The notes under the pieces were generated by a model that made no database searches, had not been told where the DNA came from, and saw nothing but the letters and a program-made list of their open reading frames with translations. Both the position numbers and the translations under genes were made by a program. This document shows, one piece after another, positions 6,143 through 46,353 of a DNA stretch of 64,000 nucleotides. The stretch covers positions 396 through 64,395 of the forward strand of contig CAMBEL010000004.1 of assembly GCA_945865605.1 (NCBI GenBank). Reading direction: 5' to 3'. Source of the DNA: Bifidobacterium breve. GTDB lineage: Bacteria; Actinomycetota; Acidimicrobiia; IMCC26256; JAENVU01. The first letter of the stretch is position 1, and each line of letters begins with the position of its first letter.

Positions 6143-6146
6143 GGCC

Positions 6147-9741: not shown

Positions 9742-9746
9742 GTTCG

Positions 9747-21565: not shown

Positions 21566-21570
21566 CTTGC

Positions 21571-22788
21571 CTAGACCTCCTCTTCGATCAGTTCAGACTG
21601 TCGCGGCATACAAAGGCGAAGGATGCCAAGTAAACAAAACGCTCCACCTATCGCGGCAGGAACAACGACAAAGCGATTCCACGCTTCGTTGCGTGCAACG
21701 AGTACGACCGCGGTGACCATCACGGCTACGAACGCGATTTCGATCAGCCACTTCCAGCCGAGATCCATCAACTGGTCGTACCGCATGCGAGGCAACGAAG
21801 CGCGCACCCAGACCGTCCCGAACAGCAACACAAGCAGTTTGGTGAAGAACCAGAACATCGGCATGAGCCAGGTGTTCACGGTGCCGGTAGCGGACAGGAA
21901 CCCAAGTGCAGGACCCGACGGACCGCCCAAGAATAACGTGACTGCGATTGCAGACATCGTGATCAGGTTCATGAACTCAGCGAGAAAAAACATCGCGAAA
22001 CGAATTCCTGTGTACTCCGTGACGAACCCACCTACCAATTCTTGTTCGGCTTCGACCAGGTCGAACGGTGGATGATTGGTCTCTGCAATTGCGGCGATCA
22101 GGAAAATCACGAACGAGACGAACGCAACCGTCCAGTACCAGCTCGTCGCAAAACTGTCCCAACTCGTCCACGCTTGAGCGTCCACAATGCCGCGGGTCGA
22201 CAGCGTTCCAGAGTGAAGTAAAACAGCGACAATCGCTAGGCCGAAGGCCGCCTCGTAAGAGAGCAACTGTGCCGAAGCGCGCACGGAGCCGAGCAACGGG
22301 TACTTCGATCCGCTCGACCATCCCGCGAGCATCACGCCGTATAGCCCTATCCCGGACATCGCAAGAAGTAACAACACCCCAATCGCAGGATCGGCGAGTT
22401 GGAGGTAGGTGGTGTGGCCGAGGATCGATACTTCTCCGCCGATTGGAATAATCGAGAATGCCAAGAACGCGGGAATGATCGATAGATACGGAGCAAGCCG
22501 AAACACGAACGGATCCGCGCCATCCGGAACTGACTGTTCCTTAAAGAAAAGTTTGATGCCGTCGGCGAGAGTTTGCAGGACCCCGTAGCGGCCACCCGCG
22601 CGGGCTGGACCGACGCGGTTCTGCATGTCAGCAATCACCTTGCGCATAAACCATATGTAAAACAAGACCAGCACCATTAGAAGTGCGAATGCCGCGACTG
22701 TCTTGATGATCAGAATGAGAACGACCGCTGGATCTACTCCACCGGCGAATAGCGGATCACCGGCGGCGAGGCTTTGTGGAGCAGTCAT
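21571..22788 (-). CDS. nuoH: NADH-quinone oxidoreductase subunit H (operon 2)
   Basis: 405 aa with [15 protein letters not shown] and [18 protein letters not shown] overlap with the nuoG stop. Confidence 0.92.
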
Positions 22789-25427: not shown

Positions 25428-26752
25428 GACGCGCTCACTGGGATCAGAGCAGGTCCAGCGCACATCGCAAGAACTTCATCGCGGAAGTATTTCTGCAGAC
25501 TTGCTACACAACTCACTGCCGACGGGCCGAGCGGACAAATCGTTGTTTGAGTGAACGGCGCATTCATTACGCCAGGAGAGATGCTCTCGCATACGTCAAA
25601 CAACATGTCTAAATCCTGCGGCCGTCCATGCCCGTTGACAATGCGGAACAGCACCTTCTCGATCCATCCAGTTCCTTCACGGCACGGCGTGCACTTCCCA
25701 CATGATTCATGCGCAAAGAACTTCGCTAGCCTCCACGCCACTAGTACCGGGTTGACGGTCTCGTCGTAGACCATCACCGCTCCGGAACCGAGCATGACGC
25801 CAAATGTCTGCTGCACATAGTCCATGTCGAGAGGCGCATCTAAGTGTTCGTCGGAACCTATGAGCCACTGGCTCGACGCGCCGCCTGGAATAAAGAACTT
25901 CACAGCGCGATCCTCTCGGATGCCTCCACCTAGTTCCGGTGAATACAAAAGATCGCGGAACGTGATACCCAACTCGACTTCATAGTTACCGGGACGTTTG
26001 ACATGACCCGACAATGAGAAAAGGCGCGTACCCGTGGAACGGTTCACTCCAAGTTTGGCGTACTCGTCGCCGCCCATGAGGACGATGTGCGGAAGAGTCG
26101 AAATGGTCTCGACGTTGTTGACGACAGTTGGCTTCGCGTAGAGCCCTTCAATCGCTGGAAATGGCGGGCGTATGCGTGGCATGCCGCGTTCGCCTTCGAG
26201 GCTCTCGAGAAGGGCGGTTTCCTCACCACATATGTACGCACCTGCGCCGCGATGCACAACAATTTCGAGGTCGAATCCTGAACCGAGAATGTTGGAACCT
26301 AAGAAGCCCTTCGCGTGTGCTGCTGCGATGGCATCTACAAGACGCTCGTATCCAAGCGCGAACTCGCCTCTGAGGTAGATGAACGCGAGGTTGCATTCGA
26401 TCGCGTAGGCAGCGATGACGATTCCCTCAATCAATTGATGCGGATCTGCTTCAAGCAACATGCGGTCTTTGAAGGTGGACGGTTCACCTTCGTCCGCGTT
26501 GATCACGAGATAGCGCGGGAAGGACGCCTCTGGAAGAAACGACCACTTGGTCGCTGTGGGGAATCCGGCGCCGCCGCGGCCGCGCAGCCCGGAAGCCTTC
26601 ACCTGTTCTTGGCCGATTGCATCGCGTCCGATCGCGATGGCCTTCTTGAGTCCTTCATACGCGCCAGACGCAAGTGCACCATCGATCGTCCAAGAGTCTT
26701 CTGCGCGATCGCGAATGCGCTTCGTAATTATTCTTGTTTCGACGGCGCTCAT
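25424..26752 (-). CDS. nuoF: NADH-quinone oxidoreductase subunit F (operon 2)
   Basis: 442 aa with GLRGRGGAGFPT (FMN/NADH site) and ESCGKCTPCREG (cluster N3). Confidence 0.94.
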   Translation of the reverse strand: MSAVETRIITKRIRDRAEDSWTIDGALASGAYEGLKKAIAIGRDAIGQEQVKASGLRGRGGAGFPTATKWSFLPEASFPRYLVINADEGEPSTFKDRMLLEADPHQLIEGIVIAAYAIECNLAFIYLRGEFALGYERLVDAIAAAHAKGFLGSNILGSGFDLEIVVHRGAGAYICGEETALLESLEGERGMPRIRPPFPAIEGLYAKPTVVNNVETISTLPHIVLMGGDEYAKLGVNRSTGTRLFSLSGHVKRPGNYEVELGITFRDLLYSPELGGGIREDRAVKFFIPGGASSQWLIGSDEHLDAPLDMDYVQQTFGVMLGSGAVMVYDETVNPVLVAWRLAKFFAHESCGKCTPCREGTGWIEKVLFRIVNGHGRPQDLDMLFDVCESISPGVMNAPFTQTTICPLGPSAVSCVASLQKYFRDEVLAMCAGPALIPVSAS

Positions 26753-27240
26753 GACAGGCGGCCGCCACTGGTGCCGCGTGCAACCAACTCGCCGCGCTTA
26801 TACGCCTCGATGATGTCCTCCGCGCTGGCAGTTGTAAGACCGTCGTGGAATTCGTAATTCACTTGCATGGCGGGCGCACCGTCGCAAGACGCTAGGCACT
26901 CAACTTCTTCTACGAATACTTCGTCATCATCTGAATAACGATCAACTAAGTGTTCGAGCAATTCGGGTCCGCCGGTCACCAGACAAGTCACATTCGTGCA
27001 AACAGAAACAACTAGGCGGCCTACTGGGTCTCGTTTAAACATTGTGTAGAAACTGCACGTCCCGAGTACTTCTGCGGGCTCGATGCCCGTCATAAGGGCG
27101 ATTTCGCGCATCGCTTCTGGCGAGAGCCAACCGTCTTGGTCCTGTGCGAGATGAGCCAGCGGAAGAACTGCTGACTTAGGACGCGGATAACTCGCGACGA
27201 TTGTTCGGGCGCGTTCGAGGTTCTTTGTGGTGAAGGTCAC
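26749..27240 (-). CDS. nuoE: NADH-quinone oxidoreductase subunit E (operon 2)
   Basis: 163-aa thioredoxin-like 2Fe-2S protein with the cysteine pattern CTNVTC ... CLASCDGAP. Confidence 0.9.
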   Translation of the reverse strand: MTFTTKNLERARTIVASYPRPKSAVLPLAHLAQDQDGWLSPEAMREIALMTGIEPAEVLGTCSFYTMFKRDPVGRLVVSVCTNVTCLVTGGPELLEHLVDRYSDDDEVFVEEVECLASCDGAPAMQVNYEFHDGLTTASAEDIIEAYKRGELVARGTSGGRLS

Positions 27241-27242
27241 GG

Positions 27243-28529
27243 CTACCTGTCCACCTCGCCCAAGATCGGATCAACGCTAGAGATCACGGCGACGGCATCC
27301 GCAACGAGGCGATCTTCCATCATGGGTCCCATCGACTGCAGGTTGTAGAAGGAAGGCGCACGGACGTGCATGCGCGTTGGCTTGCCAGTGCCATCAGAAA
27401 CGATGTAGCAGCCAACCTCTCCGCGCGGAGACTCAACCGACACATATGTCTCACCCGCAGGAACTCTGAATCCTTCTGTGAACAACTTGAAGTGATGGAT
27501 CAATGCTTCCATCGACTGATCAATGCGTTCGCGTGGTGGCGGAGTGATCTTTTTGTCCTGCACCCGGTAGTCACCTGGCGGCATCATCTCTACACATTGA
27601 CGAACGATCTTGATTGATTCGGCAATCTCTGTGAGGCGAATGCGATACCGATCGAAACAGTCGCCGTTCTGCGTGTAGATCACGTCGAAGTCGACCTTGT
27701 CATAGGCAAGGTACGGCTGAGCTTTACGAAGGTCCCATGCAAAACCTGTCGACCGAAGGATCGGTCCCGATACCCCAAGAGCGAGAGCCTGCTCGGTTGT
27801 TATGACGCCGACGCCAACAGTTCGCTCGATCCAGATTGGGTTACCGGTGAGGAGTGTGTCGTAGTCCCCGATGCCAACTTCGACTTTGTCGCAAAGTTCG
27901 AGAACAGCGTGCTGCCAACCGTCAGGTAAATCGGCTGCCACGCCGCCGGGACGCACAAAGTTGTGGTTCATGCGAAGGCCGGTGATCATCTCAAGAACTC
28001 TGAGCGTCTCTTCACGCTCACGCCAGCCGTAGAGCATCATCGAGACCGCGCCAATGTCCATTCCGTTAGACGCTTGGAACAGCAAATGACTTGCCATCCG
28101 ACTGAGCTCGGCGAGCATCATCCGAATCCATATGGAGCGTTCTGGAACCTCTACATCGAGAAGCTGTTCGACTGCCATTGAGAAGACGATTTCGTTCGCA
28201 ATCGGCGACGCGTAGTCCATGCGCGTGACGTTGGTGCACCCCTGCACGTAGGTCAGTTGCTCACCCGTTTTTTCCATGCCGGTGTGCAAGTAACCAATCA
28301 CTGGTTTCGCTCGCACGACGGTCTCACCGTCGAGTTCCATCATTACGCGCAACACGCCGTGCGTAGATGGATGCTGCGGGCCCATGTTGATGATCATGGT
28401 TTCGCCGTCGCCCTCGAGCTCGGGCCATACCGTTCCCGTAACAACAAGTTCGTGGCTTGCTTTTAGTTCTTGCGCGCCTTCGTCGGTCTGGCGGCTTAGA
28501 CGTTCGGTTTCGTTAACAACTTCGTTCAT
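27243..28529 (-). CDS. nuoD: NADH-quinone oxidoreductase subunit D (operon 2)
   Basis: Contains NMGPQHPSTHGVLRV, GYLHTGMEKT and the C-terminal ILGEVDR. ATG at 28529 has AGGAGC 8 nt upstream. The track ORF begins at GTG 28571, inside the duplicated spacer. Confidence 0.92.
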   Translation of the reverse strand: MNEVVNETERLSRQTDEGAQELKASHELVVTGTVWPELEGDGETMIINMGPQHPSTHGVLRVMMELDGETVVRAKPVIGYLHTGMEKTGEQLTYVQGCTNVTRMDYASPIANEIVFSMAVEQLLDVEVPERSIWIRMMLAELSRMASHLLFQASNGMDIGAVSMMLYGWREREETLRVLEMITGLRMNHNFVRPGGVAADLPDGWQHAVLELCDKVEVGIGDYDTLLTGNPIWIERTVGVGVITTEQALALGVSGPILRSTGFAWDLRKAQPYLAYDKVDFDVIYTQNGDCFDRYRIRLTEIAESIKIVRQCVEMMPPGDYRVQDKKITPPPRERIDQSMEALIHHFKLFTEGFRVPAGETYVSVESPRGEVGCYIVSDGTGKPTRMHVRAPSFYNLQSMGPMMEDRLVADAVAVISSVDPILGEVDR

Positions 28530-28536
28530 AACGCCT

Positions 28537-28636
28537 GCTCCTGGCCCTGCGGGCCGGGCCGCTCTGGCCACGCTCCGCTCATGATTTCCGCTCCTGGCCC
28601 TGCGGGCCGGGCCGCTCTGGCCACGCTCCGCTCATG
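28537..28636. repeat. 53-bp-period tandem duplication (two 47-nt identical copies) in the nuoC2-nuoD2 junction
   Basis: gctcctggccctgcgggccgggccgctctggccacgctccgctcatg occurs at 28537..28583 and again at 28590..28636. The same peptide PAPGPAGRAALATLRS therefore appears in two plus-strand track ORFs. Confidence 0.95.
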
Positions 28637-29225
28637 CTGCTCCACCGACTCTGGGTCCGGGGTCTTCTTTGAAGGTGACCGGAACGCGCGCCGGGGCATC
28701 GTCTTTGCGAAGTGGGTAACCGGACCAGTCGTCGGGCATCAAGATGCGCGTGAGATCGGGGTGGCCAACGAACACAATGCCGAATAGGTCGAACACTTCG
28801 CGTTCTGCAAAGTTCACACCCGCGTAGACCGGCGTCAGACTTGGGACGGTCGTGTCAGACACAGGCACTTGTGCGATGACTCGGATGCGCCGGTTGCGCG
28901 CGTGCGAAATGAAGTTGGCCACTAACTCGAAACGTTCAGGCGCTACGCCTGGAACCGCCATACGTTCTGCATCGGTTAGGTGATCCACCGCGGTGACGTC
29001 GAGACAGGTTGTGAATTGTTCTTCATCACGCAGGTATGTCGCGATGTCTGCCATCTGCGAACGATCTGCGTAGACAACCGGCTGCCCATGGCTGTCGTGG
29101 AAGATCGAGCCCTCAAATTTCGCTACGAGCGCGGCGGCAACTTCGTCGGTAGGGACGGGCTTATCAGGCCGCTCGTGAAACTCTTCACTAGCACCTTCGT
29201 CGACGACTGCAGTCGGTTCTGCCAT
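28632..29225 (-). CDS. nuoC: NADH-quinone oxidoreductase subunit C (operon 2)
   Basis: Contains the block NFAEREVFDLFGIVFVGHPDLTRILMPDDW. ATG at 29225 lies 4 nt after the nuoB stop; the track ORF to 29324 overlaps nuoB. Confidence 0.88.
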   Translation of the reverse strand: MAEPTAVVDEGASEEFHERPDKPVPTDEVAAALVAKFEGSIFHDSHGQPVVYADRSQMADIATYLRDEEQFTTCLDVTAVDHLTDAERMAVPGVAPERFELVANFISHARNRRIRVIAQVPVSDTTVPSLTPVYAGVNFAEREVFDLFGIVFVGHPDLTRILMPDDWSGYPLRKDDAPARVPVTFKEDPGPRVGGAA

Positions 29226-29229
29226 TGAC

Positions 29230-29796
29230 TTAGGTGGCCTGCGAGATTGAGACGGGCATGCGGGGTGTGCCAGCTGGCGGCTCAGAAACTTGAATCGCCG
29301 CACCACCGGTTGGCGAAACTTCACGACGCTTTAGCAACTCGCCAGTTCGGATTTGTTCGTGCAACGTGAGGATGCCGTGCATGAGCGTCTCTGGACCTGG
29401 GGGGCAACCAGGTACGTACACATCGACGGGAACAATCTGGTCGACGCCTTGCACGATGGCGTAGTTGTTGAACATGCCGCCAGAACTTGCGCACACTCCC
29501 ATGGAAATGACCCACTTGGGTTCAACCATCTGGTCGTATACCTGACGCAGCACGGGAGCCATCTTCTGCGACACGCGTCCCGCGACAATCATGAGGTCTG
29601 CTTGGCGCGGACTGGCGCGGAACACTTCCATTCCGTAACGCGCAAGGTCGTAGTGCGCTGCACCTGTTGCCATCATCTCAATGGCGCAACATGCAAGACC
29701 GAATGTTGCGGGAAAAACACTGTTGCGGCGCGCCCATCGAACAACGTCTTCGAGACGACCGGTGAGAAAGTTGTGTGGGACAGCGTCGAGTGCCAC
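29230..29796 (-). CDS. nuoB: NADH-quinone oxidoreductase subunit B (operon 2)
   Basis: Contains the blocks [21 protein letters not shown] and [12 protein letters not shown] at 29796 overlaps the nuoA TAG by 1 nt. The upstream part of the 353-aa track ORF is an out-of-frame shadow of nuoA. Confidence 0.9.
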
Positions 29797-30257
29797 TACG
29801 CGGCTTCTTCTTGTGGTGCGCGTAATGGAGGTGCGGCGACACCTTCGGGAAGTCCGGCCGCGCGCAACACGGGACGAATGATGCGATCGGCAACTTGGCG
29901 CACCGGTCCCCAGTCGAGTGCGCCGACAGAGAGTAGATATGCGAACGGCACGAGGAGAACGATGAGGAAGGTACCCATCAATGCCAATCCATAGCCACCC
30001 AACTCTTCGAAAACGGTCGCGAATGGGTAGAGGAAAATGATCTCGACGTCGAGCACAATGAAGGCCATCGCAACCAAGTAGAAGCGGACCGGGAAGCGTT
30101 CGGCTGGCTCGTTTTCGGGAACGATGCCGCACTCGTATGGCGCTGTCTTCGCACGCGTCGGTCGCTTGACGGTCAGCAGCATTGAGACTTTGAAAGAGAT
30201 GACGACGAAGATGAAGACGAGCATGGTCATCGCCAAGATCGGCAGAAACTGGACCAT
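29796..30257 (-). CDS. nuoA: NADH-quinone oxidoreductase subunit A (operon 2)
   Basis: 153 aa with 3 TM segments and the block [22 protein letters not shown]. It is the first gene of the operon. Confidence 0.88.
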
Positions 30258-31574: not shown

Positions 31575-32885
31575 CTATGGCTCCGGGAGAACAGCGACGA
31601 TTCTCGATGCCAACTTGTAAGCCGCCTCTGCCGGTCCTAACTCTTCGGGCCGTAAGAGGTTGGCCATAATCCGCAGCACCCACTCCATAAGGGTCTTTGA
31701 CCGGAAACCTACGCGGGTCAATTCCCGCATAACCGCGGGATTTCCGATGGCCTTCACAAATAAGCGTGCCACCTTGAAGTAGAGCCCATATACCTCGTCT
31801 AACCGCTCTGGATACCGGGCCAACGCCAGCCCATCGCCTGTTACCAAAGCCTCATCTACCGCATCAGCCACCATGCGGGCAGTCTCGTACGCATACGCGA
31901 TGCCCTCACCGTTGAATGGGTTGATTGCGCCGACGGCATCACCCGCGACGATCCAGGTAGGTCCGGTTTTTGGAAGTACGGATCCGCCTGTGGGCAATTT
32001 GCCACCAGTCCACGGGCCATCGGCTGTATCGGTCGAGATGCCCCAATAAGCAGGGGCGCTCGCCGTGAACGCTTCCATCAGCTTGGTTGTGTTGACGGAC
32101 TTGAAGCCGGTGAATGTGTCGAGGAGTCCCGCCCCCACATTTATGGTGCCATCGCCAACGGGAAAAATCCATCCATATCCGGGCATATGGTTCCCATCGC
32201 GGTCCCGAAGGTCTAGATGGCTTTCTATCCATGGGTCATCGTGCATGTCAGAGCGGTAGTAACCCCGAATCGCCATTCCCATGGGATACGAGCGATCGCG
32301 TGAGGTGCCCAGGGCGCGCCCAAAACGGGAGTTCGCGCCGTCAGCAACAACGACATACCGAGCCGATACCGTCTCCACCGTGCCTGTTTCTTTACGGCGG
32401 ATAGCCGCCCCGGTCACCAGGCCACCTTCAAACACAGGCTCGAGGGCCTCTGCCCCTTGCCACAACGTGGCGCCAGCCTTAACCGCCCGCTCGGCCACCA
32501 TCTGATCCAGATCTCTACGTCTAACTACATATCCATGGGCCGGCAGGGTCGGGTGTTCTGGCCACTCCAACTCGAGGGTTACCCCGTGGGCGATCGAGCG
32601 CAACCCGTCATACCGGTGGAACTCACTCAAAGGCTCCGCTAGGCCAATGTCACAAAGTTGTCGCACTGCCCTTGGGGTGAGGCCATCTCCGCAGGTCTTT
32701 TCGCGCGGGAAATGCTTCTTCTCAACCACCAGAACTCGGTGGCCCCGATCGGCAAGCCAATAGGCGGTAGCTGCACCGGATGGACCGGCCCCGACGACCA
32801 GAGCATCGTAGGTATCCCGCTTCGGTAATGGCATATGCGCATCGTCGCGCGGATCGGGGGCGGACGGGGTACTGCAGGTCGGCAT
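31575..32885 (-). CDS. geranylgeranyl-reductase-family FAD-dependent oxidoreductase (MenJ-like candidate)
   Basis: Contains the dinucleotide fold YDALVVGAGPSGAATAYWLADRGHRVLVVEKK, then the hallmark PREKTCGDGLTP of geranylgeranyl reductases. Start is uncertain: ATG at 32885 has GGGGGAAAG upstream, and the track ORF begins at 32930. Confidence 0.8.
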   Translation of the reverse strand: MPTCSTPSAPDPRDDAHMPLPKRDTYDALVVGAGPSGAATAYWLADRGHRVLVVEKKHFPREKTCGDGLTPRAVRQLCDIGLAEPLSEFHRYDGLRSIAHGVTLELEWPEHPTLPAHGYVVRRRDLDQMVAERAVKAGATLWQGAEALEPVFEGGLVTGAAIRRKETGTVETVSARYVVVADGANSRFGRALGTSRDRSYPMGMAIRGYYRSDMHDDPWIESHLDLRDRDGNHMPGYGWIFPVGDGTINVGAGLLDTFTGFKSVNTTKLMEAFTASAPAYWGISTDTADGPWTGGKLPTGGSVLPKTGPTWIVAGDAVGAINPFNGEGIAYAYETARMVADAVDEALVTGDGLALARYPERLDEVYGLYFKVARLFVKAIGNPAVMRELTRVGFRSKTLMEWVLRIMANLLRPEELGPAEAAYKLASRIVAVLPEP

Positions 32886-33015
32886 AGGTCGTTCTTTCCC
32901 CCGACCCGTCGATGTATCCTGCGCCGACATAGCGTGGTATCAAACAACGTCAATACTGAGGTTCTGGGCGCGCAAAAGTGTCGCGACTGGACCAACTAAG
33001 GAGATCCAGCAGCCA

Positions 33016-33510
33016 ATGCCCAACCTGCTACCCGATATCGCCTTCTTGCGACCTGGCGGCCGTCTGATCTGGGCCACGGTGCTATTGGTGATATTCGCGA
33101 TCCCGCTGTTGATGGCTCTGCGGCGACCAAAGTCTGACTCAGTTACCACCTGGGCACAGGCGATGGCGGGCGCTACATATGTATTCGCAATGATGCTGCT
33201 CGCTTACGCCGTTATCCCGAGCGAGTTCATCACGTTCGCGGACAAGTACCTGCTCTGGGGAACGAACAGTTACATCATCAAGTCGACGACCGCGATTCCG
33301 TTTTACAATTCGCTTGACTGGCCACTCTCGATCGACATGAAGGCAATCAGAGACATCGTCGTTGTTGGCATCTACATCGTTTTCTTCGGCATCAACATCG
33401 CGTTGATCGTGTTATGGCAAAAGCGTAAGACGGCTGCAGAGTTGGAAAGTGCGCCGCCGAAAGAACTTGGCAAGTCGCGTTTTGGTCGCCCACTTCGAGC
33501 GAAGGCGTAG
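33016..33510 (+). CDS. uncharacterised integral membrane protein, first gene of the bc cluster
   Basis: 164 aa with about 3-4 hydrophobic segments. AAGGAG lies 10 nt upstream of the ATG, and the stop is 5 nt before the ferredoxin gene. No family recognised. Confidence 0.6.
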   Translation: MPNLLPDIAFLRPGGRLIWATVLLVIFAIPLLMALRRPKSDSVTTWAQAMAGATYVFAMMLLAYAVIPSEFITFADKYLLWGTNSYIIKSTTAIPFYNSLDWPLSIDMKAIRDIVVVGIYIVFFGINIALIVLWQKRKTAAELESAPPKELGKSRFGRPLRAKA

Positions 33511-33514
33511 GCGA

Positions 33515-33928
33515 ATGGCCAAGACCGACGCGAATCCACCGATGCCCCTGTTCGTTACGGACTATGTATTGCAAGAAGTCGACACGTCATACCTGACGCA
33601 GACTGTTAAACCGAAGCAGTTTTTGCACATCGATCAAGCCGAATGCATCCTGTGCGAAGGCTGTGTCGATATCTGCCCGTGGAAGTGCATTCACATGGTG
33701 TCGTTATCGGCGATCGATGAAGCGATTGGCACCGAACTCCCCGGAGAAGACCCGCGGGACCAGGTTGCGTTTATCGTTGACGAAGATGTTTGCACCCGCT
33801 GCGCGCTTTGCGTAGACCGGTGCCCAACTGGAGTAATCATTCTTGGAAAAATTACAGACCAAAGCGCAGAGGGCGATCCACATACCCGCACTCCGCGCAA
33901 TGGGTACGCGTACGGCCTGAGGTTCTAG
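33515..33928 (+). CDS. 2[4Fe-4S] dicluster ferredoxin-domain protein
   Basis: 137 aa with two complete motifs, CILCEGCVDICP and CTRCALCVDRCP. ATG at 33515 follows the preceding stop; the track ORF starts earlier and overlaps. Confidence 0.85.
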   Translation: MAKTDANPPMPLFVTDYVLQEVDTSYLTQTVKPKQFLHIDQAECILCEGCVDICPWKCIHMVSLSAIDEAIGTELPGEDPRDQVAFIVDEDVCTRCALCVDRCPTGVIILGKITDQSAEGDPHTRTPRNGYAYGLRF

Positions 33929-33986
33929 AACGCAAACTCGTTCGGCGACTTTGCCGAACTCGAACAGAAAAGTAGGAGACACACTC

Positions 33987-34784
33987 GTGGCCAGTGCCAA
34001 CGGGAGCAACGGGAGCGGCGGCATCGGAACGAAGTTGCGCGCGCGCTCGAAAAAACTCGGAGAGCAGGTAGGCAACTCGCAGGTAATGAACTCGATCTTC
34101 CGCCCGGGTTCCATCTTTAGACACGGCTACACGGATAGCCCACGTAACCGCTCATACGTCGTGATGAACAGCGTGCTGTACCACCTTCACCCTGTGAAGG
34201 TGAAACGACATGCAGTCAAGGTGAGCTACACGCTTTGTCTCGGCGGGCTTTCCTTCTTCTTGTTCATCTTGCTCACGGTCACCGGCATCTTCCTCATGTT
34301 CTTCTACCGCCCAACCGAGGCACTCGCTTGGAACAACATTCAGCAACTCGAAACTGCTGTGTGGTTTGGTTCCATGGTTCGCAACATGCATCGATGGGGC
34401 GCTCACCTAATGGTGCTCACCGTGTTCATGCACATGAGCCGCGTCTTCTACCACGGTGCGTACAAGGCACCGCGCGAGTTCAACTGGGTGATCGGCGTAA
34501 TCCTGCTCACGCTCACGCTCATGCTCTCGTTCACCGGATACCTATTGCCGTGGGACCAACTGGCACTTTGGGCAGTGACAGTAGGTACGAACATGATGGG
34601 TTACACGCCAGTATTCGGTGGCCAAGTTCGTTACGCACTTTTGGGTTCCAAAGAAATCAGCGGCGATACTTTGTTGCGTTGGTACACCTTGCACGTGTTG
34701 CTACTGCCGTTCATCATTGTGATCTTTATGGCCGTCCACTTCTGGCGAGTTCGTAAGGATGGGGGCATCAGTGGACCTCTCTAA
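33987..34784 (+). CDS. cytochrome b6-type subunit (cytochrome b N-terminal half, 4 TM)
   Basis: His pairs lie in MVRNMHRWGAHLMVLTVFMHM and TLHVLLLPFIIVIFMAVHFWRV. FFYRPT and PWDQ-type blocks are present. A CLGG cysteine lies before TM1 at 34236..34238. GTG at 33987 has AGGAG 8 nt upstream; the track ORF starts at 33951. Confidence 0.88.
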   Translation: MASANGSNGSGGIGTKLRARSKKLGEQVGNSQVMNSIFRPGSIFRHGYTDSPRNRSYVVMNSVLYHLHPVKVKRHAVKVSYTLCLGGLSFFLFILLTVTGIFLMFFYRPTEALAWNNIQQLETAVWFGSMVRNMHRWGAHLMVLTVFMHMSRVFYHGAYKAPREFNWVIGVILLTLTLMLSFTGYLLPWDQLALWAVTVGTNMMGYTPVFGGQVRYALLGSKEISGDTLLRWYTLHVLLLPFIIVIFMAVHFWRVRKDGGISGPL

Positions 34785-34796
34785 GGGGAAGCGCAC

Positions 34797-35648
34797 ATGA
34801 CCGAACTCCCCGAGCACCTTAAAAAGCGCGCCGCCGAACGGCGAGCACAACTAGCCAAGGCCAGCGGTGACGCACCCGAAGAAACTGCGACGGGCGCCAC
34901 ACCAGGCGCCACTACAGCCGACGAGCAACCAGTCGCTCAAGAAATCTCCGAAGCTGCTGCACCAGTTGCTGCCACCTCGGCGAGCTCCGAGATCACCGAA
35001 TCGAAGGGCGGCGTCCCTTCTCATCTGCTCGAACGCTCGCGTAAGCGTAAGGCGGCACTCGCTGGTGGCGACGGCGAAGAAGTTTCTGGTGGTGGCGTTG
35101 CAACAGCGGTGAAGGCGGCTCCAATCGCGGTCCCGACAGGAACCGGTCCAGACGGACACACGCAACGGCTGCTAACGGTTGTTAAGTCCGGGTCCATCCA
35201 ACAGACCCGCGGCGAAGCGGTCGACAAAGTCCACACATGGCCACACCTTCTCGTAGTCGAGTTCGCTGCAACTCTCGCCTGCAGTGCGATGCTCCTCATC
35301 TTCTCTGCTCTGGTGCGCGCTCCCCTTCTTGGCCTAGCCGATGTCAACCAAACCCCTAACCCGTCAAAGGCCCCGTGGTACTTCCTGGGCCTTCAGGAGT
35401 TGTTGACGATGTTCCACCCGATGGTCGCTGGAGTGACCATCCCGGGCATGGGGTTGTTCTTGCTCATGATTGCCCCCTATGTCGACAAGACCACTTCCAA
35501 TAGGCCAGAGGACCGCAAGTTTGCGATCTCCGTGTTCACCATATTCTTGATGTTCTGGGCAGTACTAGTAATTATCGGTTCGTTCTTCCGGGGACCAGGT
35601 TTCAACTTTGTTTTCCCGTGGAACGACGGAATCTTCTTCGAACTTTAG
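34797..35648 (+). CDS. cytochrome b C-terminal / subunit IV-like protein with long N-terminal extension
   Basis: The C-terminal 135 aa carry NPSKAPWYFLGLQELL (the PEWY-region equivalent) and 3 TM segments. The N-terminal ~145 aa are Ala/Glu/Thr-rich. Confidence 0.82.
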   Translation: MTELPEHLKKRAAERRAQLAKASGDAPEETATGATPGATTADEQPVAQEISEAAAPVAATSASSEITESKGGVPSHLLERSRKRKAALAGGDGEEVSGGGVATAVKAAPIAVPTGTGPDGHTQRLLTVVKSGSIQQTRGEAVDKVHTWPHLLVVEFAATLACSAMLLIFSALVRAPLLGLADVNQTPNPSKAPWYFLGLQELLTMFHPMVAGVTIPGMGLFLLMIAPYVDKTTSNRPEDRKFAISVFTIFLMFWAVLVIIGSFFRGPGFNFVFPWNDGIFFEL

Positions 35649-35661
35649 GAGTCTTTAGCCA

Positions 35662-36528
35662 GTGTCAGTTGCCCTTGTCATCGCTATCCCGGTTCTGCTG
35701 ATTTTTGCAGCGGTGATGATTTTCGCTACCGGACGTCGCCGCGCATCAACGGATGTAACGGGCAACGTCACGGGAACCCTCACCGCCGAGACACGCAGTC
35801 GCGACGCCGATTCCAACCCGGATGCAGGCGGCGTAGATGACGGTTCATCAGATGCGCGAGATCGGGCAGATGAAACAAAAGAAGGTGTCGACGGTGTTCC
35901 TGCGCTTCGCAACGGTGGCGAAGTAACAAAACTGCAGCCCGTAAGTGACGACGAGATCCAGATAAGTAGACGCCAATTCTTTAACCGCGGCATCCTGATA
36001 ACGATGTCGATAAGCCTCGGTGCTTTCGGCGCCGCATCCATCAGTTTCCTCTACGCCAAGTCGGCTGGAGGCTTTGGTGGCAAAGTCGATGCCGGTTCAA
36101 GTCTCGAAGATGTACTCGCGTTCACAAATGAAAACAAGCAACCGTTCTACGTTCCAGCGGCCCGCACATATCTACTCCCGTTCCCTTCGGCTGCCGTAAG
36201 CGAGGCGAAGAAAGTCCCGCAATACATGCTTCTAATCCCGGGGATGGAGCAGGGAATCATCGCGAGTTATCAGAAGTGTCCGCACCTCGGATGCAAGGTC
36301 CCGTGGTGTGGGAGTTCGCAGTGGTTCGAATGCCCATGCCACGGCTCCAAATACAACAGGGTCGGCGAGAAGACAGGTGGCCCGGCTCCCCGTGGCATGG
36401 ATCATTTCATGCTTGACGTGAACGGCGGCAAAATCACGATCGACACGTCTACTCCGATCGAGGGTGCACCTATCGGAACCGATACCACCGGCCAAGGCGC
36501 CGAGGGACCCCCATGCGTGGGCGGCTGA
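35662..36528 (+). CDS. Rieske 2Fe-2S subunit
   Basis: Contains the Rieske boxes CPHLGCKV and CPCHGSKYN. An N-terminal TM segment is followed by an internal twin-arginine-like SRRQFFNRG before a second TM. GTG start with GGAG upstream. Confidence 0.9.
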   Translation: MSVALVIAIPVLLIFAAVMIFATGRRRASTDVTGNVTGTLTAETRSRDADSNPDAGGVDDGSSDARDRADETKEGVDGVPALRNGGEVTKLQPVSDDEIQISRRQFFNRGILITMSISLGAFGAASISFLYAKSAGGFGGKVDAGSSLEDVLAFTNENKQPFYVPAARTYLLPFPSAAVSEAKKVPQYMLLIPGMEQGIIASYQKCPHLGCKVPWCGSSQWFECPCHGSKYNRVGEKTGGPAPRGMDHFMLDVNGGKITIDTSTPIEGAPIGTDTTGQGAEGPPCVGG

Positions 36529-36568
36529 TCATCATGAACCACCACCGCATCAACACTTCGAGGCGACC

Positions 36569-37834
36569 TTGATACTCGCGATCACGTTACGGACACTCAT
36601 CTTCATCATCAACATCGCTGCTGTCGGTGTGATCTTTGGTGTTATTGGTTATCGGGTGTTGTCTGTGCGACGTACACCGACCGAAGTAGAGGCTCAAAAC
36701 ATCACGCCTTTCTTCGATGATGACACTCTAGAAAATGAACACCTAACGCGCGCTTTGCGTTGGACACTGATCTTCTCGACCATCGTTGCGGTGTCACTTC
36801 CCCTTTACTGGGTACTCGAACCGTCGCGGCAAAGAGCTGAGGCAGAAGGCTTCGAACAACGCGCAATCGCTCGCGGCGGGGTGCTGTTTGCGAACGACTC
36901 CATGCCCGCTTACAACAACGCTATTTCGTTGCTCTGCGCCAACTGTCACGGCGTCGATGCTAAGGGTGGGGCAGCGCCGTTCGTAATCACGCCCGAAGCT
37001 CAAGGTGAACTCGAAGGTAGGGCGGTACAAGTGTCGTGGGACGCGCCCGCTCTGGACACGCTCTTCTGGCGCTTCAACGAGTGCACGGCAGAGGAAGTCA
37101 CAGCTGGCACCGGTGGTTGCGGCGGAGTGGAGCAACAGGTAACGCAGATCCTGATTTACGGGCGGCCCGGCACTCCGATGCCAGCGTGGGGACTCAAGGG
37201 TGGTGGACCAAAGAATGACCAAGCGATCAGTGACATCGTCGCATACCTCAAGAGCATCCAGGTCTCGCCAGCCCAGGCAAGCGCAAGAGTTCAATCCGAC
37301 ATCGCCGCACTTCAAGACGAAGCCACCAGTGGAGTCGACGTTGCGAAGGGGAACCTCAAAGACGCCCAAACCGAACGTGCTGCTGCAAAGAATGTGGAAG
37401 ATCGCGCTGTAGCGGTAGGGAAAGTCATTGCTGCCGAGACTGCCGTAAAGCGCGCTGAGAATTATCTCGCCGAAGTCGAGCGCTCGAGTGAAGGCGAGTT
37501 GCTTTTCATGACGCAGTGCGCGCGTTGCCACACGACTGGCTGGTCCTATAACGAGCCGAGTGATCCGCTGGTTCCGTTGCCCGGACCACAGGGTGGCGGC
37601 GCATTCGGGCCATCGTTGCGAGCCGGTGCCGTGACGGAACAGTTCCCTGGAAATCCGTTCAGTGATCCGAACACTCCCGGTTATATAAAGCAATACGCAT
37701 GGGTAGCCGAAGGTGTCGAGGCCAACAAGGGATACGGCGTGCGCGGCATCTCTTCAGGACGCATGCCCCACTTCGGCCAGATATTCACCAAGGGTCAACT
37801 CGACGCCGTAATCACGTTTGAACGAGGTCTGTGA
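36569..37834 (+). CDS. membrane-anchored dihaem cytochrome c
   Basis: Two haem c motifs, CANCHG and CARCHT, with an N-terminal TM segment. The track ORF begins at 36464, overlapping the Rieske gene. TTG at 36569 with GAGG 5 nt upstream is a plausible start; the start is uncertain. Confidence 0.82.
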   Translation: MILAITLRTLIFIINIAAVGVIFGVIGYRVLSVRRTPTEVEAQNITPFFDDDTLENEHLTRALRWTLIFSTIVAVSLPLYWVLEPSRQRAEAEGFEQRAIARGGVLFANDSMPAYNNAISLLCANCHGVDAKGGAAPFVITPEAQGELEGRAVQVSWDAPALDTLFWRFNECTAEEVTAGTGGCGGVEQQVTQILIYGRPGTPMPAWGLKGGGPKNDQAISDIVAYLKSIQVSPAQASARVQSDIAALQDEATSGVDVAKGNLKDAQTERAAAKNVEDRAVAVGKVIAAETAVKRAENYLAEVERSSEGELLFMTQCARCHTTGWSYNEPSDPLVPLPGPQGGGAFGPSLRAGAVTEQFPGNPFSDPNTPGYIKQYAWVAEGVEANKGYGVRGISSGRMPHFGQIFTKGQLDAVITFERGL

Positions 37835-38739
37835 TGGGAACGTCGTTGGTTAATGCAGCAGTCCTTGCAAGCGGTGGACTCACTGAACGGAGTCTTTGGT
37901 ATCCGACGATCCTCGGGGTACTCGTATTCATCGCAGCGATCAGCCTGTTTTGCGGAACTATCTACTTATTGCTTGCAACCAACCTGGGCGCGCGCCTCGG
38001 GTTCCTGATCGCTGGTGCCGGTCTCTCTGGCCTAATGATGTTGATGGCGTCATTGTGGATGACTACATCGTTCCCACTAACCACACTCAAAGGGCGCATA
38101 CCCCAATGGGTTGCGCTCGAATCAATCGATGGCGGAGACACGGCCAGGTCACCGTACGTACCTGTTCAGACGATCAGAACGCCGGGCAACGAAGCCGACA
38201 TCGCAGAGATGACAAACGTAAAAGCTTCTGTAGATCAGGCGCTGGTAAATACGAGTGAGACAGGCGCCATCTCGGAGGAAGTGGGCACAACCGCACGCTT
38301 CGCGGTTTACGAATCTGCTTCGGACTACATCGTCAAGGATGTGTACGAGACCGGCGGAGGAACCATATTTAGCCAGGTCGACGTTTCAACCAGCAGCGAC
38401 TGGCCATGGCTGCACGTGAGCCTGCACGAGCCGCTCTACGCGATGGCAGACCTATGCCCTGTCGATTCCTCAAAGATGATTGTTCCGTTCGGCGACCCAA
38501 TACCGCCTCCAGTTTGCGACAAGTCCAAAGGCATCGACAGCCTCGTATTCGTTCGCGACCTTGGTTCAATGCGCATGCCGCCATTCGTTGCCTTCCTGGC
38601 TTCTGGCACGCTGTTTGCATTGTTCCTGCTCGGTTTGCACTGGCGAGAACGCGATCTACTGGAAATGGCTGCTGTGTCGCAGCCTGAGAAGCAACCCGAG
38701 TTGGATGCAGCCGAAGACAAGACGTTGGAACCGGTATGA
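37831..38739 (+). CDS. uncharacterised membrane protein translationally coupled to cytochrome c
   Basis: 302 aa. Two N-terminal TM segments, a soluble domain of about 170 aa and a C-terminal TM segment. The start (GTGATG) overlaps the cytochrome c stop. No family recognised. Confidence 0.65.
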   Translation: MMGTSLVNAAVLASGGLTERSLWYPTILGVLVFIAAISLFCGTIYLLLATNLGARLGFLIAGAGLSGLMMLMASLWMTTSFPLTTLKGRIPQWVALESIDGGDTARSPYVPVQTIRTPGNEADIAEMTNVKASVDQALVNTSETGAISEEVGTTARFAVYESASDYIVKDVYETGGGTIFSQVDVSTSSDWPWLHVSLHEPLYAMADLCPVDSSKMIVPFGDPIPPPVCDKSKGIDSLVFVRDLGSMRMPPFVAFLASGTLFALFLLGLHWRERDLLEMAAVSQPEKQPELDAAEDKTLEPV

Positions 38740-38978
38740 GGAATACGTTGAACGCACTGCAGGTATTCACCCGGCGATCGGGCATTCGATTGGCGTCAGT
38801 CTTGGGCCTCGCTGTGTTCGCTGCGGGCTGCAACGACGGCCAACTGATCGACGCAGCGGGCGCAGGTGGTGGCGGAGGCGCTGCCTTCGTGCTGTTCGTG
38901 ATTTTCTTCTGGGGGTTCATCGCGAGCTTGTTCTACATGGACAAAATCCGCCGCAAGAAGTCCAACAAAGATACCTAG
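38736..38978 (+). CDS. small putative lipoprotein / membrane protein
   Basis: 80 aa with an ATGA overlap to the preceding gene. Lipobox-like LAVFAAGC, a Gly run, one TM segment (AAFVLFVIFFWGFIASLFY) and a basic tail. Confidence 0.5.
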   Translation: MRNTLNALQVFTRRSGIRLASVLGLAVFAAGCNDGQLIDAAGAGGGGGAAFVLFVIFFWGFIASLFYMDKIRRKKSNKDT

Positions 38979-44920: not shown

Positions 44921-45567
44921 GAGCGGAGCAGCTCCCTTGCCTCATCGAGGCGTCCTTCGCGGATCAGCTCGAGGATGCCGGACTCAAGCGCACCTCGCCA
45001 ATTAGAGGCCTCGGTAGAGCTGCCTGTTGCAATCAACTCCAACCTGCATTCCTCGAGAATGACCAAAAGTGTCTCATATTCCTCGCCAATTTCTTTACGG
45101 AATCGATCGGCCAGATGCGCACTTAGTGCAGGGCTTCGTCCGTTGGTCCCAATCGCAACAACGATATCGCCGCGTCGCACTAGAGCCATAAGAGTTAGCG
45201 AGCAGTTGGATGGATCATCGGCGCTGTTCACCCATATCTGCCGTTCCTCACTAGCTTCGAAAACTGCGAGGTCAACGGCAGGAACTCCGGTTGCCGTTAT
45301 AACAAGCCACGCTCCCTCTACGTCAGACGAGGCGAACTCTCGCTGCGCCCATGTACACCGGCCTGCCTCCACCAATGCACGAACCTCTGCAGATGCTTCG
45401 GGGGCCACAACCTCAACTACAGCGTTTTGATCGAGGAGTCTGTTGATCTTTCGAAAAGCGATATGACCGGCACCGACTACGAGACAACGACGCCCTCCAA
45501 CGCTCAGGTTTGCCGGGAAACCTGACAACACCGGACGTTCTACCGAACTTTCTGGATCTGTGGTCAT
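44911..45567 (-). CDS. precorrin-2 dehydrogenase / sirohydrochlorin ferrochelatase (siroheme synthase N-terminal-domain type)
   Basis: 218 aa with the fold CLVVGAGHIAFRKINRLL and the later blocks VNSADDP and VAIGTNGRSPALS. Confidence 0.8.
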   Translation of the reverse strand: MTTDPESSVERPVLSGFPANLSVGGRRCLVVGAGHIAFRKINRLLDQNAVVEVVAPEASAEVRALVEAGRCTWAQREFASSDVEGAWLVITATGVPAVDLAVFEASEERQIWVNSADDPSNCSLTLMALVRRGDIVVAIGTNGRSPALSAHLADRFRKEIGEEYETLLVILEECRLELIATGSSTEASNWRGALESGILELIREGRLDEARELLRSCL

Positions 45568-46271
45568 GATGTCTTCGCCGTTGTCGCCTGGAGTTGCACA
45601 TCGGGAGTGAATTTCCCGACGCGTCGACGTGACTTTCGCTCTGCTTGGTAGTACGAAAGAATTTGAAGTTCGGTCGCGAGATCTACCTTACGAAGCGATA
45701 CCCCTTCGGGAACAGAAACGATGGCTGGCGCAAAGTTGAGGATCGACGAGATGCCAGCATCGACGAGTTGGTCTGTGACGTCTTGGGCCGCTGCAGCGGG
45801 AGTTGCAATAACTCCAATGCGGATGCCACGCATCGCGACCAAGTCCGCGAGCGACTCGATCGGATCTACAGCAAGCCCACCAACTTTTTCGCCATGCTTC
45901 GCTGGATCGGCATCTACCAACGCGCTTACTTGAAAACCGCGCGCTCCGAATCCACCATAGTTTGCCAACGCTTGTCCAAGATTTCCTATGCCGACGATCA
46001 CGACGGGCCAGTCCTGAGTGAGACCGAGTTCCCTTGAGATAACAGCCAATAGGAACTCGACCGCGTATCCGACACCGCGCGTGCCGTAGGACCCGAGATA
46101 AGAGAGGTCTTTACGGACCTTGGCGGCGTTCACACCAGCGAGATCGGCCAGCTGTTCAGATGAAACGGTCTCAATGTCCCGCTCGGCCGTCTCATTGAGG
46201 GCCCTGTAATAAAGGGGGAGACGAGCAACCGTGGCCTCGGGGATCCGACGTCCGTCGAGGCGGTCTGGCAC
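45564..46271 (-). CDS. rex: redox-sensing transcriptional repressor Rex
   Basis: 235 aa with the N-terminal winged helix IPEATVARLPLYYRAL and Rossmann fold VVIVGIGNLGQALANY. It is the first gene of a rex-hem operon, as in Streptomyces. Confidence 0.9.
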   Translation of the reverse strand: MPDRLDGRRIPEATVARLPLYYRALNETAERDIETVSSEQLADLAGVNAAKVRKDLSYLGSYGTRGVGYAVEFLLAVISRELGLTQDWPVVIVGIGNLGQALANYGGFGARGFQVSALVDADPAKHGEKVGGLAVDPIESLADLVAMRGIRIGVIATPAAAAQDVTDQLVDAGISSILNFAPAIVSVPEGVSLRKVDLATELQILSYYQAERKSRRRVGKFTPDVQLQATTAKTS

Positions 46272-46335: not shown

Positions 46336-46353
46336 TAGTGCACTTGTTCACAA
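46336..46353. promoter_or_regulatory. candidate Rex operator (ROP)
   Basis: tagtgcacttgttcacaa matches TTGTGAA-N4-TTCACAA at 12 of 14 specified positions. It lies 65 nt upstream of the rex start, in the divergent intergenic region. Confidence 0.65.

Follow-up and report, generated by a model that had tools for sequence, protein, structure and literature searches.

A ferredoxin gene conserved with the b6c-type Rieske/cytochrome b gene cluster of Acidimicrobiia and other Actinomycetota

Why is a gene cluster for a Rieske/cytochrome b complex accompanied by a ferredoxin gene? Rieske/cytochrome b complexes are usually seen as closed Q-cycle machines. The question is raised by positions 33016-38978 of a 64,000-nucleotide stretch of contig CAMBEL010000004.1 (positions 396 to 64,395; assembly GCA_945865605.1), which comes from a metagenome-assembled genome (MAG) of the Acidimicrobiia and is called the window here. 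Eight genes in this part of the window encode a cytochrome b6, a subunit IV (SUIV), a Rieske protein, a cytochrome c, a 2[4Fe-4S] ferredoxin-like protein, and three membrane proteins. The explanation that we favour, and consider probable on balance, is that the cluster encodes a menaquinol:cytochrome c oxidoreductase (complex III) of the b6c type, from the APWY clade (subfamily G), and that the ferredoxin is its subunit on the n side. It would be the free-standing counterpart of a dicluster domain found at the C terminus of GltD-like proteins. The cluster is probably the main complex III of the organism.

The gene cluster and its cytochrome b

The eight open reading frames (ORFs) are all co-oriented and closely packed.

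33016..33510, + strand, gene 1, membrane protein of 164 aa; ORF, no family
33515..33928, + strand, 2[4Fe-4S] ferredoxin-like protein of 137 aa; Pfam Fer4 families
33987..34784, + strand, cytochrome b6 of 265 aa; Pfam Cytochrome_B
34797..35648, + strand, SUIV of 283 aa; Pfam Cytochrom_B_C
35662..36528, + strand, Rieske protein of 288 aa; Pfam Rieske, NCBIfam b6f Rieske-like
36569..37834, + strand, dihaem cytochrome c of 421 aa, membrane-anchored; Pfam Cytochrom_C, ORF opens at 36464
37831..38739, + strand, gene 7, membrane protein of 302 aa; ORF, no family
38736..38978, + strand, gene 8, small membrane protein of 80 aa; ORF, lipobox-like AAGC

The starts of the ferredoxin (33515), b6 (33987), and cytochrome c genes are taken from gene calls on contigs with identical proteins. 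The ferredoxin ORF itself opens at 33449, overlapping gene 1, and b6 has an alternative TTG start at 33951. With the refined starts, the successive intergenic gaps are 4, 58 (22 if b6 starts at the TTG), 12, 13, 40, -4, and -4 nt. A promoter and terminator scan of the cluster gave no informative sites and no convincing intergenic terminator. Searches of Pfam and NCBIfam assign a family to five of the eight proteins (ferredoxin, b6, SUIV, Rieske, and cytochrome c) and give no match for genes 1, 7, and 8. Transmembrane (TM) helices, charge, and topology were derived by simple hydropathy analysis. A first-pass annotation, made from the sequence alone, had listed the eight ORFs and a number of motifs, and each of them was found again, including the four haem-ligand histidines and the Cys84 codon (34236-34238) of b6.

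Cytochrome b6 is a four-helix protein with haem ligands H135/H149 and H236/H251 in the 14/15 spacing of the b6 type. It matches Pfam Cytochrome_B with E 1e-45, and its best relatives in the PDB are the b6 chains of b6f complexes (E 1e-46). Cys84 is part of YTLCLGG (CLGG at 34236-34247) and lies before helix A, a candidate site for the covalent haem cn. HLHP (34182-34193), whose first histidine is H66, is found 18 residues upstream of Cys84, and an invariant RKDGG motif (R256/K257) is encoded at 34752-34766. Residues 1 to 87 are basic (13 K/R vs 2 D/E).

SUIV has a cytoplasmic N-terminal extension of ~150 residues followed by three TM helices. Its Qo motif is APWY (35370-35381), which is present in 75 of the 80 related loci described below, the remainder being truncated. 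Another motif, WPHLLVVEF (35238-35264; WPxxxxxEF), retains EF in 74 of the same 80 loci. In models of anammox complexes haem cn is ligated by Glu (PMC12954380), and by analogy the Glu of this motif is a candidate axial ligand of haem cn. A phmmer search of the SUIV core against the PDB gave no match.

The Rieske protein consists of an N-terminal TM helix, a cytoplasmic loop of 89 aa, a Tat-like RRQFF motif, and a second TM helix, followed by the boxes CPHLGC (36277-36294) and CPCHGSKY (36331-36354). Its best NCBIfam matches are of the b6f type. Box II carries the S-Y signature, and this form predominates in relatives. An S-Y signature is associated with midpoint potentials >260 mV, and in the APWY clade every Rieske protein falls in the Mid+ to High range (PMC4122944). 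The cluster's Rieske protein is thus predicted from its signature to have a high midpoint potential. The cytochrome c is class-I-like with two CxxCH motifs, CANCH (36935-36949) and CARCH (37517-37531), and shows weak similarity in NCBIfam to actinobacterial QcrC and to CcoP of cbb3 oxidases.

The b6, SUIV, and Rieske proteins of the cluster belong to the APWY/subfamily G group. The first-pass annotation had suggested a b6c-type complex, in contrast to qcrCAB, and the NCBIfam scores bear this out: bc1_QcrB_actin reaches 110 bits against a cut-off of 500, bc1_QcrA_actin 16.3 against 275, and bc1_QcrC_actin 21.6 against 200. The classical actinobacterial QcrCAB (in the III2IV2 supercomplex of Mycobacterium and Corynebacterium) shares with the cluster the phylum and the menaquinol substrate. 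Its electrons leave through a membrane-anchored dihaem cytochrome c; the cytochrome c of the cluster likewise has two CxxCH motifs and a membrane anchor, but with the low QcrC score just given. Unlike the cluster, the classical complex has a QcrB of ~550 aa that is unsplit and lacks CxGG, a QcrA with three TM helices, PDWY, and no ferredoxin.

The extHIJKLMNOPQS cluster of Geobacter, through ExtOPQ, also has a split cytochrome b of the APWY-type group. The window b6 scores 302.4 bits with NCBIfam ExtP (cut-off 290), and the ExtQ score is 55.5 (cut-off 150). In contrast to the Ext system (composition in PMC5877670), neither the window cluster nor the related loci have ExtH-N/S multihaem cytochromes, a porin, or a rhodanese. 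An Acidimicrobiales b6 (P0044) is publicly named 'selenite/tellurite reduction operon b-type cytochrome ExtP'. This name, given because the equivalog cut-off of NCBIfam is barely passed, looks wrong and looks like an over-extension of the model.

The ferredoxin and its conservation

The ferredoxin scores above the cut-offs of Pfam Fer4, Fer4_7, and Fer4_21. It has two CxxCxxCxxxCP motifs, CILCEGCVDICP (33644-33679) and CTRCALCVDRCP (33791-33826), both of which are kept in relatives. The protein is acidic (11 K/R vs 21 D/E) and has no TM helix and no signal peptide by hydropathy. Three features go beyond the cluster-binding core: the N terminus is extended, ~37 residues are inserted between the two cluster motifs, and there is a GYxYGxR tail. 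All eight cysteines are conserved among relatives, as is the full length, these extensions included. The closest PDB sequences are the polyferredoxins FwdF and MvhB, and NuoI and NdhI. The identity of a displaced NuoI was considered and rejected: both nuo operons of the window own a NuoI, and identity is ~35% over 75 residues. Several bc-linked ferredoxins (P0399, P0404, and P0437) are publicly named 'NADH-quinone oxidoreductase subunit I', and this name too looks wrong.

Conservation of the ferredoxin gene with the bc genes had been set beforehand as a test. One genome per species was scanned with the b6 protein, so that the ferredoxin was not presupposed, and 80 loci were returned. Almost all carry the label Acidimicrobiia or that of unclassified Actinomycetota (Ilumatobacteraceae, Microthrixaceae, acIV, and others). 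Their cluster content was scored by tblastn with the eight window proteins. The ferredoxin gene is directly upstream of b6 in 79 of the 80 loci, with the gene order of the window. Because the same order recurs in 79 of 80 species genomes, the arrangement is far beyond chance. HLHP and YTLCLGG are each found in all 80 b6 proteins; conservation of the CLGG cysteine in the clade, which the first-pass annotation had also called for, is thus complete.

Identity to the window protein among the 80 loci is as follows.

b6, 76-94%
ferredoxin, 65-86%
SUIV, 52-79%
Rieske, 38-65%
cytochrome c, 27-61%
gene 1, 25-63%
gene 7, 25-58%

The ferredoxin therefore ranks second in conservation within the cluster, behind b6. 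The sole exception to the linkage is an Ilumatobacteraceae MAG (CAVUUX010000008.1; L049:8001-8738), in which a b6 82% identical to the window b6, with HLHP and CLGG intact, stands alone. It has no ferredoxin, SUIV, or Rieske gene nearby; the adjacent genes encode an LPG-synthase-like membrane protein and an ABC transporter. Either a second paralogous copy or a chimera of the assembly could explain this b6.

The three proteins without a family are all membrane proteins. Gene 1 encodes three predicted TM helices and a basic C-terminal tail with a conserved S..GRPL, and is found upstream of the ferredoxin gene in Acidimicrobiia loci. Gene 7 has a periplasmic domain of ~175 residues that is framed by two TM helices on its N-terminal side and one on its C-terminal side; it is found in the loci that reach far enough downstream. 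Gene 8, with a lipobox-like AAGC (38820-38831), one C-terminal TM helix, and a basic tail, is detectable in closer relatives only. Profile searches of the PDB gave nothing significant for gene 1 or for gene 7, the best match of the latter being the NEAT domain of IsdB (E 0.095), which is taken as noise. A single-sequence AlphaFold 2 (AF2) model of gene 7 has a pLDDT of 46.7, too low for use.

The ferredoxin family is small. An exhaustive search of 1.8 billion cluster representatives gave 652 representatives at E<1e-3 and 156 at E<1e-10. Among them are divergent free-standing ferredoxins, 36-44% identical to the window protein, from other MAGs labelled 'Actinomycetota bacterium'. The gene order in these distant Actinomycetota is gene-1 homologue, ferredoxin, b6, SUIV, Rieske, cytochrome c, gene-7 homologue, and a small gene, so that the ferredoxin is again conserved with the bc genes. 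Gene 1 is homologous to a protein of 123 aa at the same position (E 5e-9), gene 7 is homologous to the gene at its own position (E 9e-10), and gene 8 has a marginal match (E 0.005). Genes 1, 7, and 8 are absent from the loci of the GltD-like proteins described below. Judged from these sequence comparisons, they are Actinomycetota-specific accessory membrane proteins.

The context of the cluster differs between lineages. In two loci from other Actinomycetota (L085:1-6429 and L087:1-6359), the ferredoxin-b6c cluster is directly behind a co-oriented and complete set of System I genes for cytochrome c maturation (ccmE, F, H, A, B, and C). In Acidimicrobiia its neighbours are nuo, menJ-like, and hem genes. 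For the isolate Salinilacustrithrix flava, a supplementary gene list names petC and ctaCDE and no qcr gene. This is consistent with a b6-type enzyme as the main complex III, without proving it.

A natural in-frame fusion of the ferredoxin to b6 (P0088, 377 aa) is found at L171:1600-2733, on one metagenome contig of 4.9 kb. A clean deletion has removed the sequence for the ferredoxin tail together with the stop codon, the spacer, and the b6 start; the other frames hold no remnant of the tail. Two more fusions, P0063 and P0091, resemble frameshift read-throughs and were excluded from the evidence.

Related domains beside other cytochromes b

A second group of proteins carries the same domain. 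They are GltD/NfnB-like proteins of ~600 aa (Fer4_20 and Pyr_redox_2) with a C-terminal domain of 110 residues that shares 45-51% identity with the window ferredoxin and contains the same insertion (GltD-Fd below). Metagenome contigs were scanned with these C-terminal domains and 80 GltD-Fd loci were obtained. The GltD-Fd gene is followed by a b6 gene, whose product is 39-63% identical to the window b6, in 64 of these 80 loci, or in 64 of the 75 with enough flank, and both SUIV and Rieske were detected in 46 of the 64. L089 has the ferredoxin as a gene of its own, located between the flavoprotein gene and the Rieske/cytochrome b genes. In Actinomycetota the arrangement is different: no GltD-like gene belongs to the window cluster, and none is found in the flanks of ~8 kb on either side of the 80 related clusters.

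Among the 16 GltD-Fd loci without a detectable cytochrome b, five end at a contig edge. The loci without cytochrome b include L114, L135, L138, L142, L144, L149, L150, L153, L157, L165, and L166. In L144 (6384-8390) the GltD-like gene is followed by a gene for a protein of 412 aa without a Pfam family. The dicluster domain may dock on a different partner in such loci.

Complexes of this kind are described in anammox bacteria. Two Rieske/cytochrome b complexes of Kuenenia stuttgartiensis (Kuste4569-4574 and Kustd1480-1485) have an NAD(P) oxidoreductase subunit that co-migrates with them, and AlphaFold 3 (AF3) models place four iron-sulphur (FeS) clusters between FAD and the n-side haems (PMC12954380). 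The same models predict an extra b haem at the dimer interface, ligated by His43 (Kuste4571) or His62 (Kustd1481), with its propionates at Arg247 (Kuste4571) or Arg266/Lys267 (Kustd1481) (PMC12954380). It is also reported that short cytochromes b of 'subfamily G' accompany cytoplasmic NAD(P)/FeS oxidoreductases in planctomycetes and in 'many other cases' (Dibrova et al. 2017, PMC5600118; PMC12954380). Further sources on the anammox complexes and the subfamily G operons are Kartal 2011 and 2013 and Dibrova 2013.

The counterpart of H66 is present in all 63 GltD-Fd-linked b6 proteins. The distance from this histidine to the RK motif is 190 residues in the window b6 and 204 in L089 (His42 to Arg246/Lys247), which has a 14-residue insertion. 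The latter value equals that from His43 to Arg247 in Kuste4571 and from His62 to Arg266 in Kustd1481, by the published residue numbers. Because the spacing matches, H66 would be the counterpart of the predicted extra-haem ligand, as judged by this spacing rather than by direct alignment with the Kuenenia proteins.

The cysteine of CxGG is found in ~39 of the 63 GltD-Fd-linked b6 proteins and is missing in ~24. The long form in L089 (1592-3181), in which b6 is fused to SUIV, has WGLGG in place of CxGG. The pattern in GltD-Fd-linked b6 agrees with the published correlation between cytochrome b length and CxGG in subfamily G. A role of the ferredoxin specific to haem cn was dropped, because homologous domains are also found beside the ~24 of 63 b6 proteins without the cysteine. 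The first-pass annotation had built its rationale on the haem ci (cn) site. The invariance of the cysteine in the clade agrees with this, but the rationale proves too narrow, since the H66 counterpart is the residue common to all 63.

The phylogenetic position of the window b6 was examined with a neighbour-joining tree with 100 bootstraps, rooted on the b6 proteins of spinach and Chlamydomonas and built without named reference members of the published clade. The b6 proteins of Actinomycetota are monophyletic in 92 of 100 bootstraps. They are nested among APWY-type, GltD-Fd-linked b6 proteins in 99 of 100, the exact sister group not being resolved. A placement among split-b clades was one of the checks that the first-pass annotation had proposed. 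Because the actinobacterial b6 is nested in this way, the ferredoxin-only form would most simply be a derived state, which arose by loss or detachment of the flavoprotein module. This polarity depends on the b6f rooting and on the distance method.

Thus the window cluster shares several features with the anammox and subfamily G complexes: a four-helix b6 with CxGG, a separate SUIV with APWY, the S-type signature of a high-potential Rieske protein, an N-terminal histidine at a matching distance from the C-terminal RK motif, and a cytoplasmic 2[4Fe-4S] module that belongs to a common sequence family and is encoded beside b6. It differs from the anammox complexes in that the GltD-like FAD/NAD(P) module is missing, which leaves two of the four FeS clusters, and in having three further membrane proteins, which are Actinomycetota-specific. 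Where the anammox cytochrome c is hexa- or octahaem and SUIV has five TM helices, the cluster has a dihaem cytochrome c and a SUIV with three. The hosts here are aerobic heterotrophs or mixotrophs, probably with the cluster as their main complex III.

Two other groups of complexes can be compared. The b6f complexes of cyanobacteria and chloroplasts share the split b6/SUIV, the b6-type histidine spacing, CxGG for haem cn, the S-Y Rieske protein, and a proposed n-side interaction with ferredoxin or FNR. Unlike them, the cluster lacks cytochrome f and PetG/L/M/N (no match to a small Pet subunit among the eight proteins in Pfam and NCBIfam), its Qo motif is APWY instead of PEWY, its quinone is menaquinone, its b6 has a long basic N-terminal extension with HLHP, and its ferredoxin is encoded in the operon and conserved like a subunit. 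The b6c complexes of Firmicutes (QcrABC of Bacillus; PetCBD with a dihaem cytochrome c in heliobacteria) are likewise Gram-positive, menaquinol-oxidising, and split into b6 and SUIV; their covalent haem ci/cn is biochemically demonstrated, and their c-type partners include a dihaem cytochrome. In contrast to the cluster, their motifs are PDWY or PEWY, and their Rieske signatures are of the low-potential type (PMC4122944). An FeS subunit is described for none of them, and in Bacillus the cytochrome c is fused to SUIV.

Some of this is already known. A split b6 with CxGG and APWY has been reported from Acidimicrobidae (one strain of Ilumatobacter; Kao and Hunte 2014, PMC4122944), and the association of subfamily G with oxidoreductases and the AF3-based n-side wire in anammox bacteria are published as well. 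The first-pass annotation knew of no described actinobacterial system of this composition. This is too broad for the split b6 and the oxidoreductase association and stands for the ferredoxin-bearing variant: searches of the accessible literature gave no description of a ferredoxin-bearing b6c complex in Actinomycetota. Nor did they give a ferredoxin-only version, a report of its universality in Acidimicrobiia and sister Actinomycetota, or a report of the three lineage-specific membrane proteins. The ferredoxin-only actinobacterial variant thus appears to be undescribed so far.

Gene neighbourhood and possible roles of the ferredoxin

The cluster is surrounded by other respiratory and haem-synthesis genes. 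Its upstream side is occupied, in divergent orientation, by a gene for a MenJ-like flavoprotein of the geranylgeranyl-reductase family, a glycosyltransferase gene, and a complete nuoA-N operon (14905-30257). Convergent genes on the downstream side are hemL, hemB, cobA/hemD, hemC, hemA, and rex. The nuo / menJ-like / bc / hem neighbourhood is found again in related genomes, in two arrangements.

Directly downstream of nuoA-N is a second, 11-subunit NDH-1-like operon (4679-14772, - strand) with nuoA-like, B, C, D, H, I, J, L, M, and N genes and without nuoE/F/G. Such an NDH-1, lacking the NADH module, is a candidate for quinone reduction with ferredoxin or F420. The MenJ-like, FAD-dependent gene (31575-32930, - strand) is the divergent neighbour of the cluster and is found upstream in 44 of the 80 related loci within the fetched flanks. 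It is consistent with a partly saturated menaquinone, and a cultured Acidimicrobiia isolate uses MK-9(H8) (PMC11697166).

Two more observations concern genes farther away. A gene for a Rex-type redox repressor (45564-46271, - strand) heads the hemA-hemC-cobA/hemD-hemB-hemL string, like rex-hemACD in Streptomyces, and a Rex-operator-like site, TAGTGCACTTGTTCACAA (2 mismatches), is found at 46336-46353 just upstream of it. An operator search found no such site upstream of the bc cluster, and the number of matches in the whole window was not above chance. A CopC-CopD fusion (copper resistance or delivery; 58988-60727, - strand) lies ~20 kb away from the cluster and may be relevant to the copper supply of haem-copper oxidases.

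How might the ferredoxin work as a subunit? We infer that it is bound on the n side in electron-transfer contact with the n-side haems, and that haem cn and the extra haem are present. The acidic ferredoxin would dock on b6 at its N-terminal region, which is basic and conserved. Close to this site would be haem bN, the presumed covalent haem cn (Cys84 and the Glu of SUIV), and possibly an extra haem with His66 as ligand. The two clusters of the ferredoxin would then wire the chain of low-potential haems to a cytoplasmic redox partner encoded outside the operon. The complementary charges of the two proteins and the cytoplasmic topology of the ferredoxin support the association. A link of the ferredoxin to the cytoplasmic face of the complex had been suggested by the first-pass annotation, and the homology to the dicluster domain of oxidoreductases beside related b6 proteins, together with the one fusion, speaks for it.

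Oxidation of quinol at Qo could push the second electron to a very low potential, because a Rieske protein with the high-potential S-Y signature is combined with low-potential menaquinone. The authors of the anammox study argue that this mismatch could bring haem bP low enough for a low-potential acceptor (PMC12954380). The ferredoxin may be an electron outlet to acceptors at the ferredoxin level, which would compete with quinone reduction at Qn or replace it. This is a tentative view, to which we lean for two reasons. One is the Rieske signature; the other is that the window already has a pair of NDH-1-type operons, of which one lacks NuoEFG and which could bring electrons from ferredoxin into the quinone pool at a greater profit. 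POR and OGOR are nearly universal in Acidimicrobiia (PMC11697166); therefore a ferredoxin pool exists to which the complex could be coupled, whether as outlet or as inlet.

Several points weigh against the ferredoxin as an n-side subunit and electron outlet. Its binding to the complex is deduced from sequence comparison. The fusion to b6 is known from a single contig, and an AF2 model of it (from an unpaired alignment of 53 rows) has a pLDDT of 53.4, a pTM of 0.35, and a pLDDT of ~30 for the ferredoxin part, so that the model is uninformative on docking. The dicluster domain is not exclusive to Rieske/cytochrome b complexes, since ~11 of the 75 well-flanked GltD-Fd loci are without a cytochrome b. 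The extra interfacial haem is itself an AF3 prediction in anammox bacteria, and Kuenenia was compared through published descriptions and residue numbers instead of a direct sequence alignment. No cytoplasmic partner is encoded in the cluster. If the complex is the sole complex III, drawing low-potential electrons from the Q cycle would cost proton-motive yield. Finally, the 11-subunit NDH-1-like complex without NuoEFG could already carry out ferredoxin-to-quinone transfer.

Electrons could also flow in the opposite direction. In that case the donor would be reduced soluble ferredoxin or a flavoprotein, from which electrons would enter the FeS subunit and reach menaquinone at Qn by way of the n-side haems, so that the reducing power of POR and OGOR enters the respiratory chain. 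This is analogous to the ferredoxin-dependent cyclic route long proposed for haem cn of b6f, for which the interaction with ferredoxin or FNR is a precedent (cited in PMC5600118). The invariant CxGG cysteine, the Glu-Phe pair of SUIV at a position discussed as cn ligand, the near-universality of POR and OGOR, and the location among nuo, menJ-like, and haem-synthesis genes are in line with it. However, an inlet of this kind is energetically wasteful compared with a proton-pumping route, and the window has the full nuoA-N operon as well as the NDH-1-like operon without NuoEFG, which is a better candidate for ferredoxin oxidation. The same argument was raised against the inward direction in anammox complexes (PMC12954380), and the high-potential Rieske signature with menaquinone fits an outlet better. 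We regard an inlet as rather unlikely but still as a serious rival of the outlet.

The ferredoxin need not be a stable subunit at all. As a protein without a TM helix, it might be a dedicated soluble ferredoxin that binds transiently, or an adaptor that recruits a GltD-like flavoprotein encoded elsewhere and so restores an NAD(P)-linked complex like that of anammox bacteria. A split partner is feasible in that the flavoprotein and the ferredoxin domain are separate genes in L089 and L090, and the search for a GltD-like gene covered the flanks of ~8 kb mentioned above. Within that distance, however, the gene is found in none of the 80 genomes. Full-length conservation that includes the extensions outside the cluster-binding core is unusual for a freely diffusing ferredoxin, the gene has a fixed operon position with a 4-nt gap after gene 1, and a natural fusion to b6 exists. 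Such a loose association is improbable in our view.

A non-catalytic FeS protein that, perhaps with gene 1, serves as an assembly or maturation factor (e.g., for covalent attachment of haem cn on the cytoplasmic side) or is a structural relic would suit the haem cn maturation system that is called 'a mystery' in non-cyanobacterial lineages (PMC5600118), the position of gene 1 and the ferredoxin gene directly after ccm genes in other Actinomycetota, and the three cluster proteins without known function, but it is very improbable, as all eight cluster-binding cysteines are conserved, the domain is fused to a redox enzyme in relatives, and its association with b6 does not track haem cn.

We return to the ferredoxin as an n-side subunit of complex III. 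A more specific and unlikely form of the outlet is a 'ferredoxin-reducing complex III'. Oxidation of menaquinol at Qo, driven by the branch of the high-potential Rieske protein, cytochrome c, and oxidase, would bifurcate the second electron through bP, bN, and haem cn and/or the His66-ligated haem to the bound 2[4Fe-4S] subunit and on to soluble ferredoxin. If this were true, aerobic respiration would supply low-potential reductant for the POR and OGOR of a reversed oxidative tricarboxylic acid cycle and for other ferredoxin-dependent chemistry. A mechanism so far only proposed for anammox complexes would then also have a cultivable model.

The idea that low-potential electrons are diverted from a Rieske/cytochrome b complex to a cytoplasmic FeS chain rests on hard-to-grow anammox bacteria, with co-migration data and AF3 models. 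Here a minimal n-side module, a two-cluster ferredoxin, is fixed and strongly conserved in the probable main complex III of a whole aerobic class and its sister lineages. The hosts, Acidimicrobiia and related deep-branching Actinomycetota, live aerobically and in large numbers in lakes, the oceans, soils, and activated sludge. If the ferredoxin is a real subunit, the textbook account of actinobacterial respiration, which has qcrCAB only, is incomplete. Electron exchange between a bc complex and the ferredoxin level would then be testable in the cultivable Ilumatobacter, Iamia, and Salinilacustrithrix, and would bear on both the old question of cyclic flow through b6f and the newer one of bifurcation in anammox bacteria. 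The subunit would also be a candidate link between respiration and the ferredoxin-dependent POR and OGOR reactions that are nearly universal in these bacteria.

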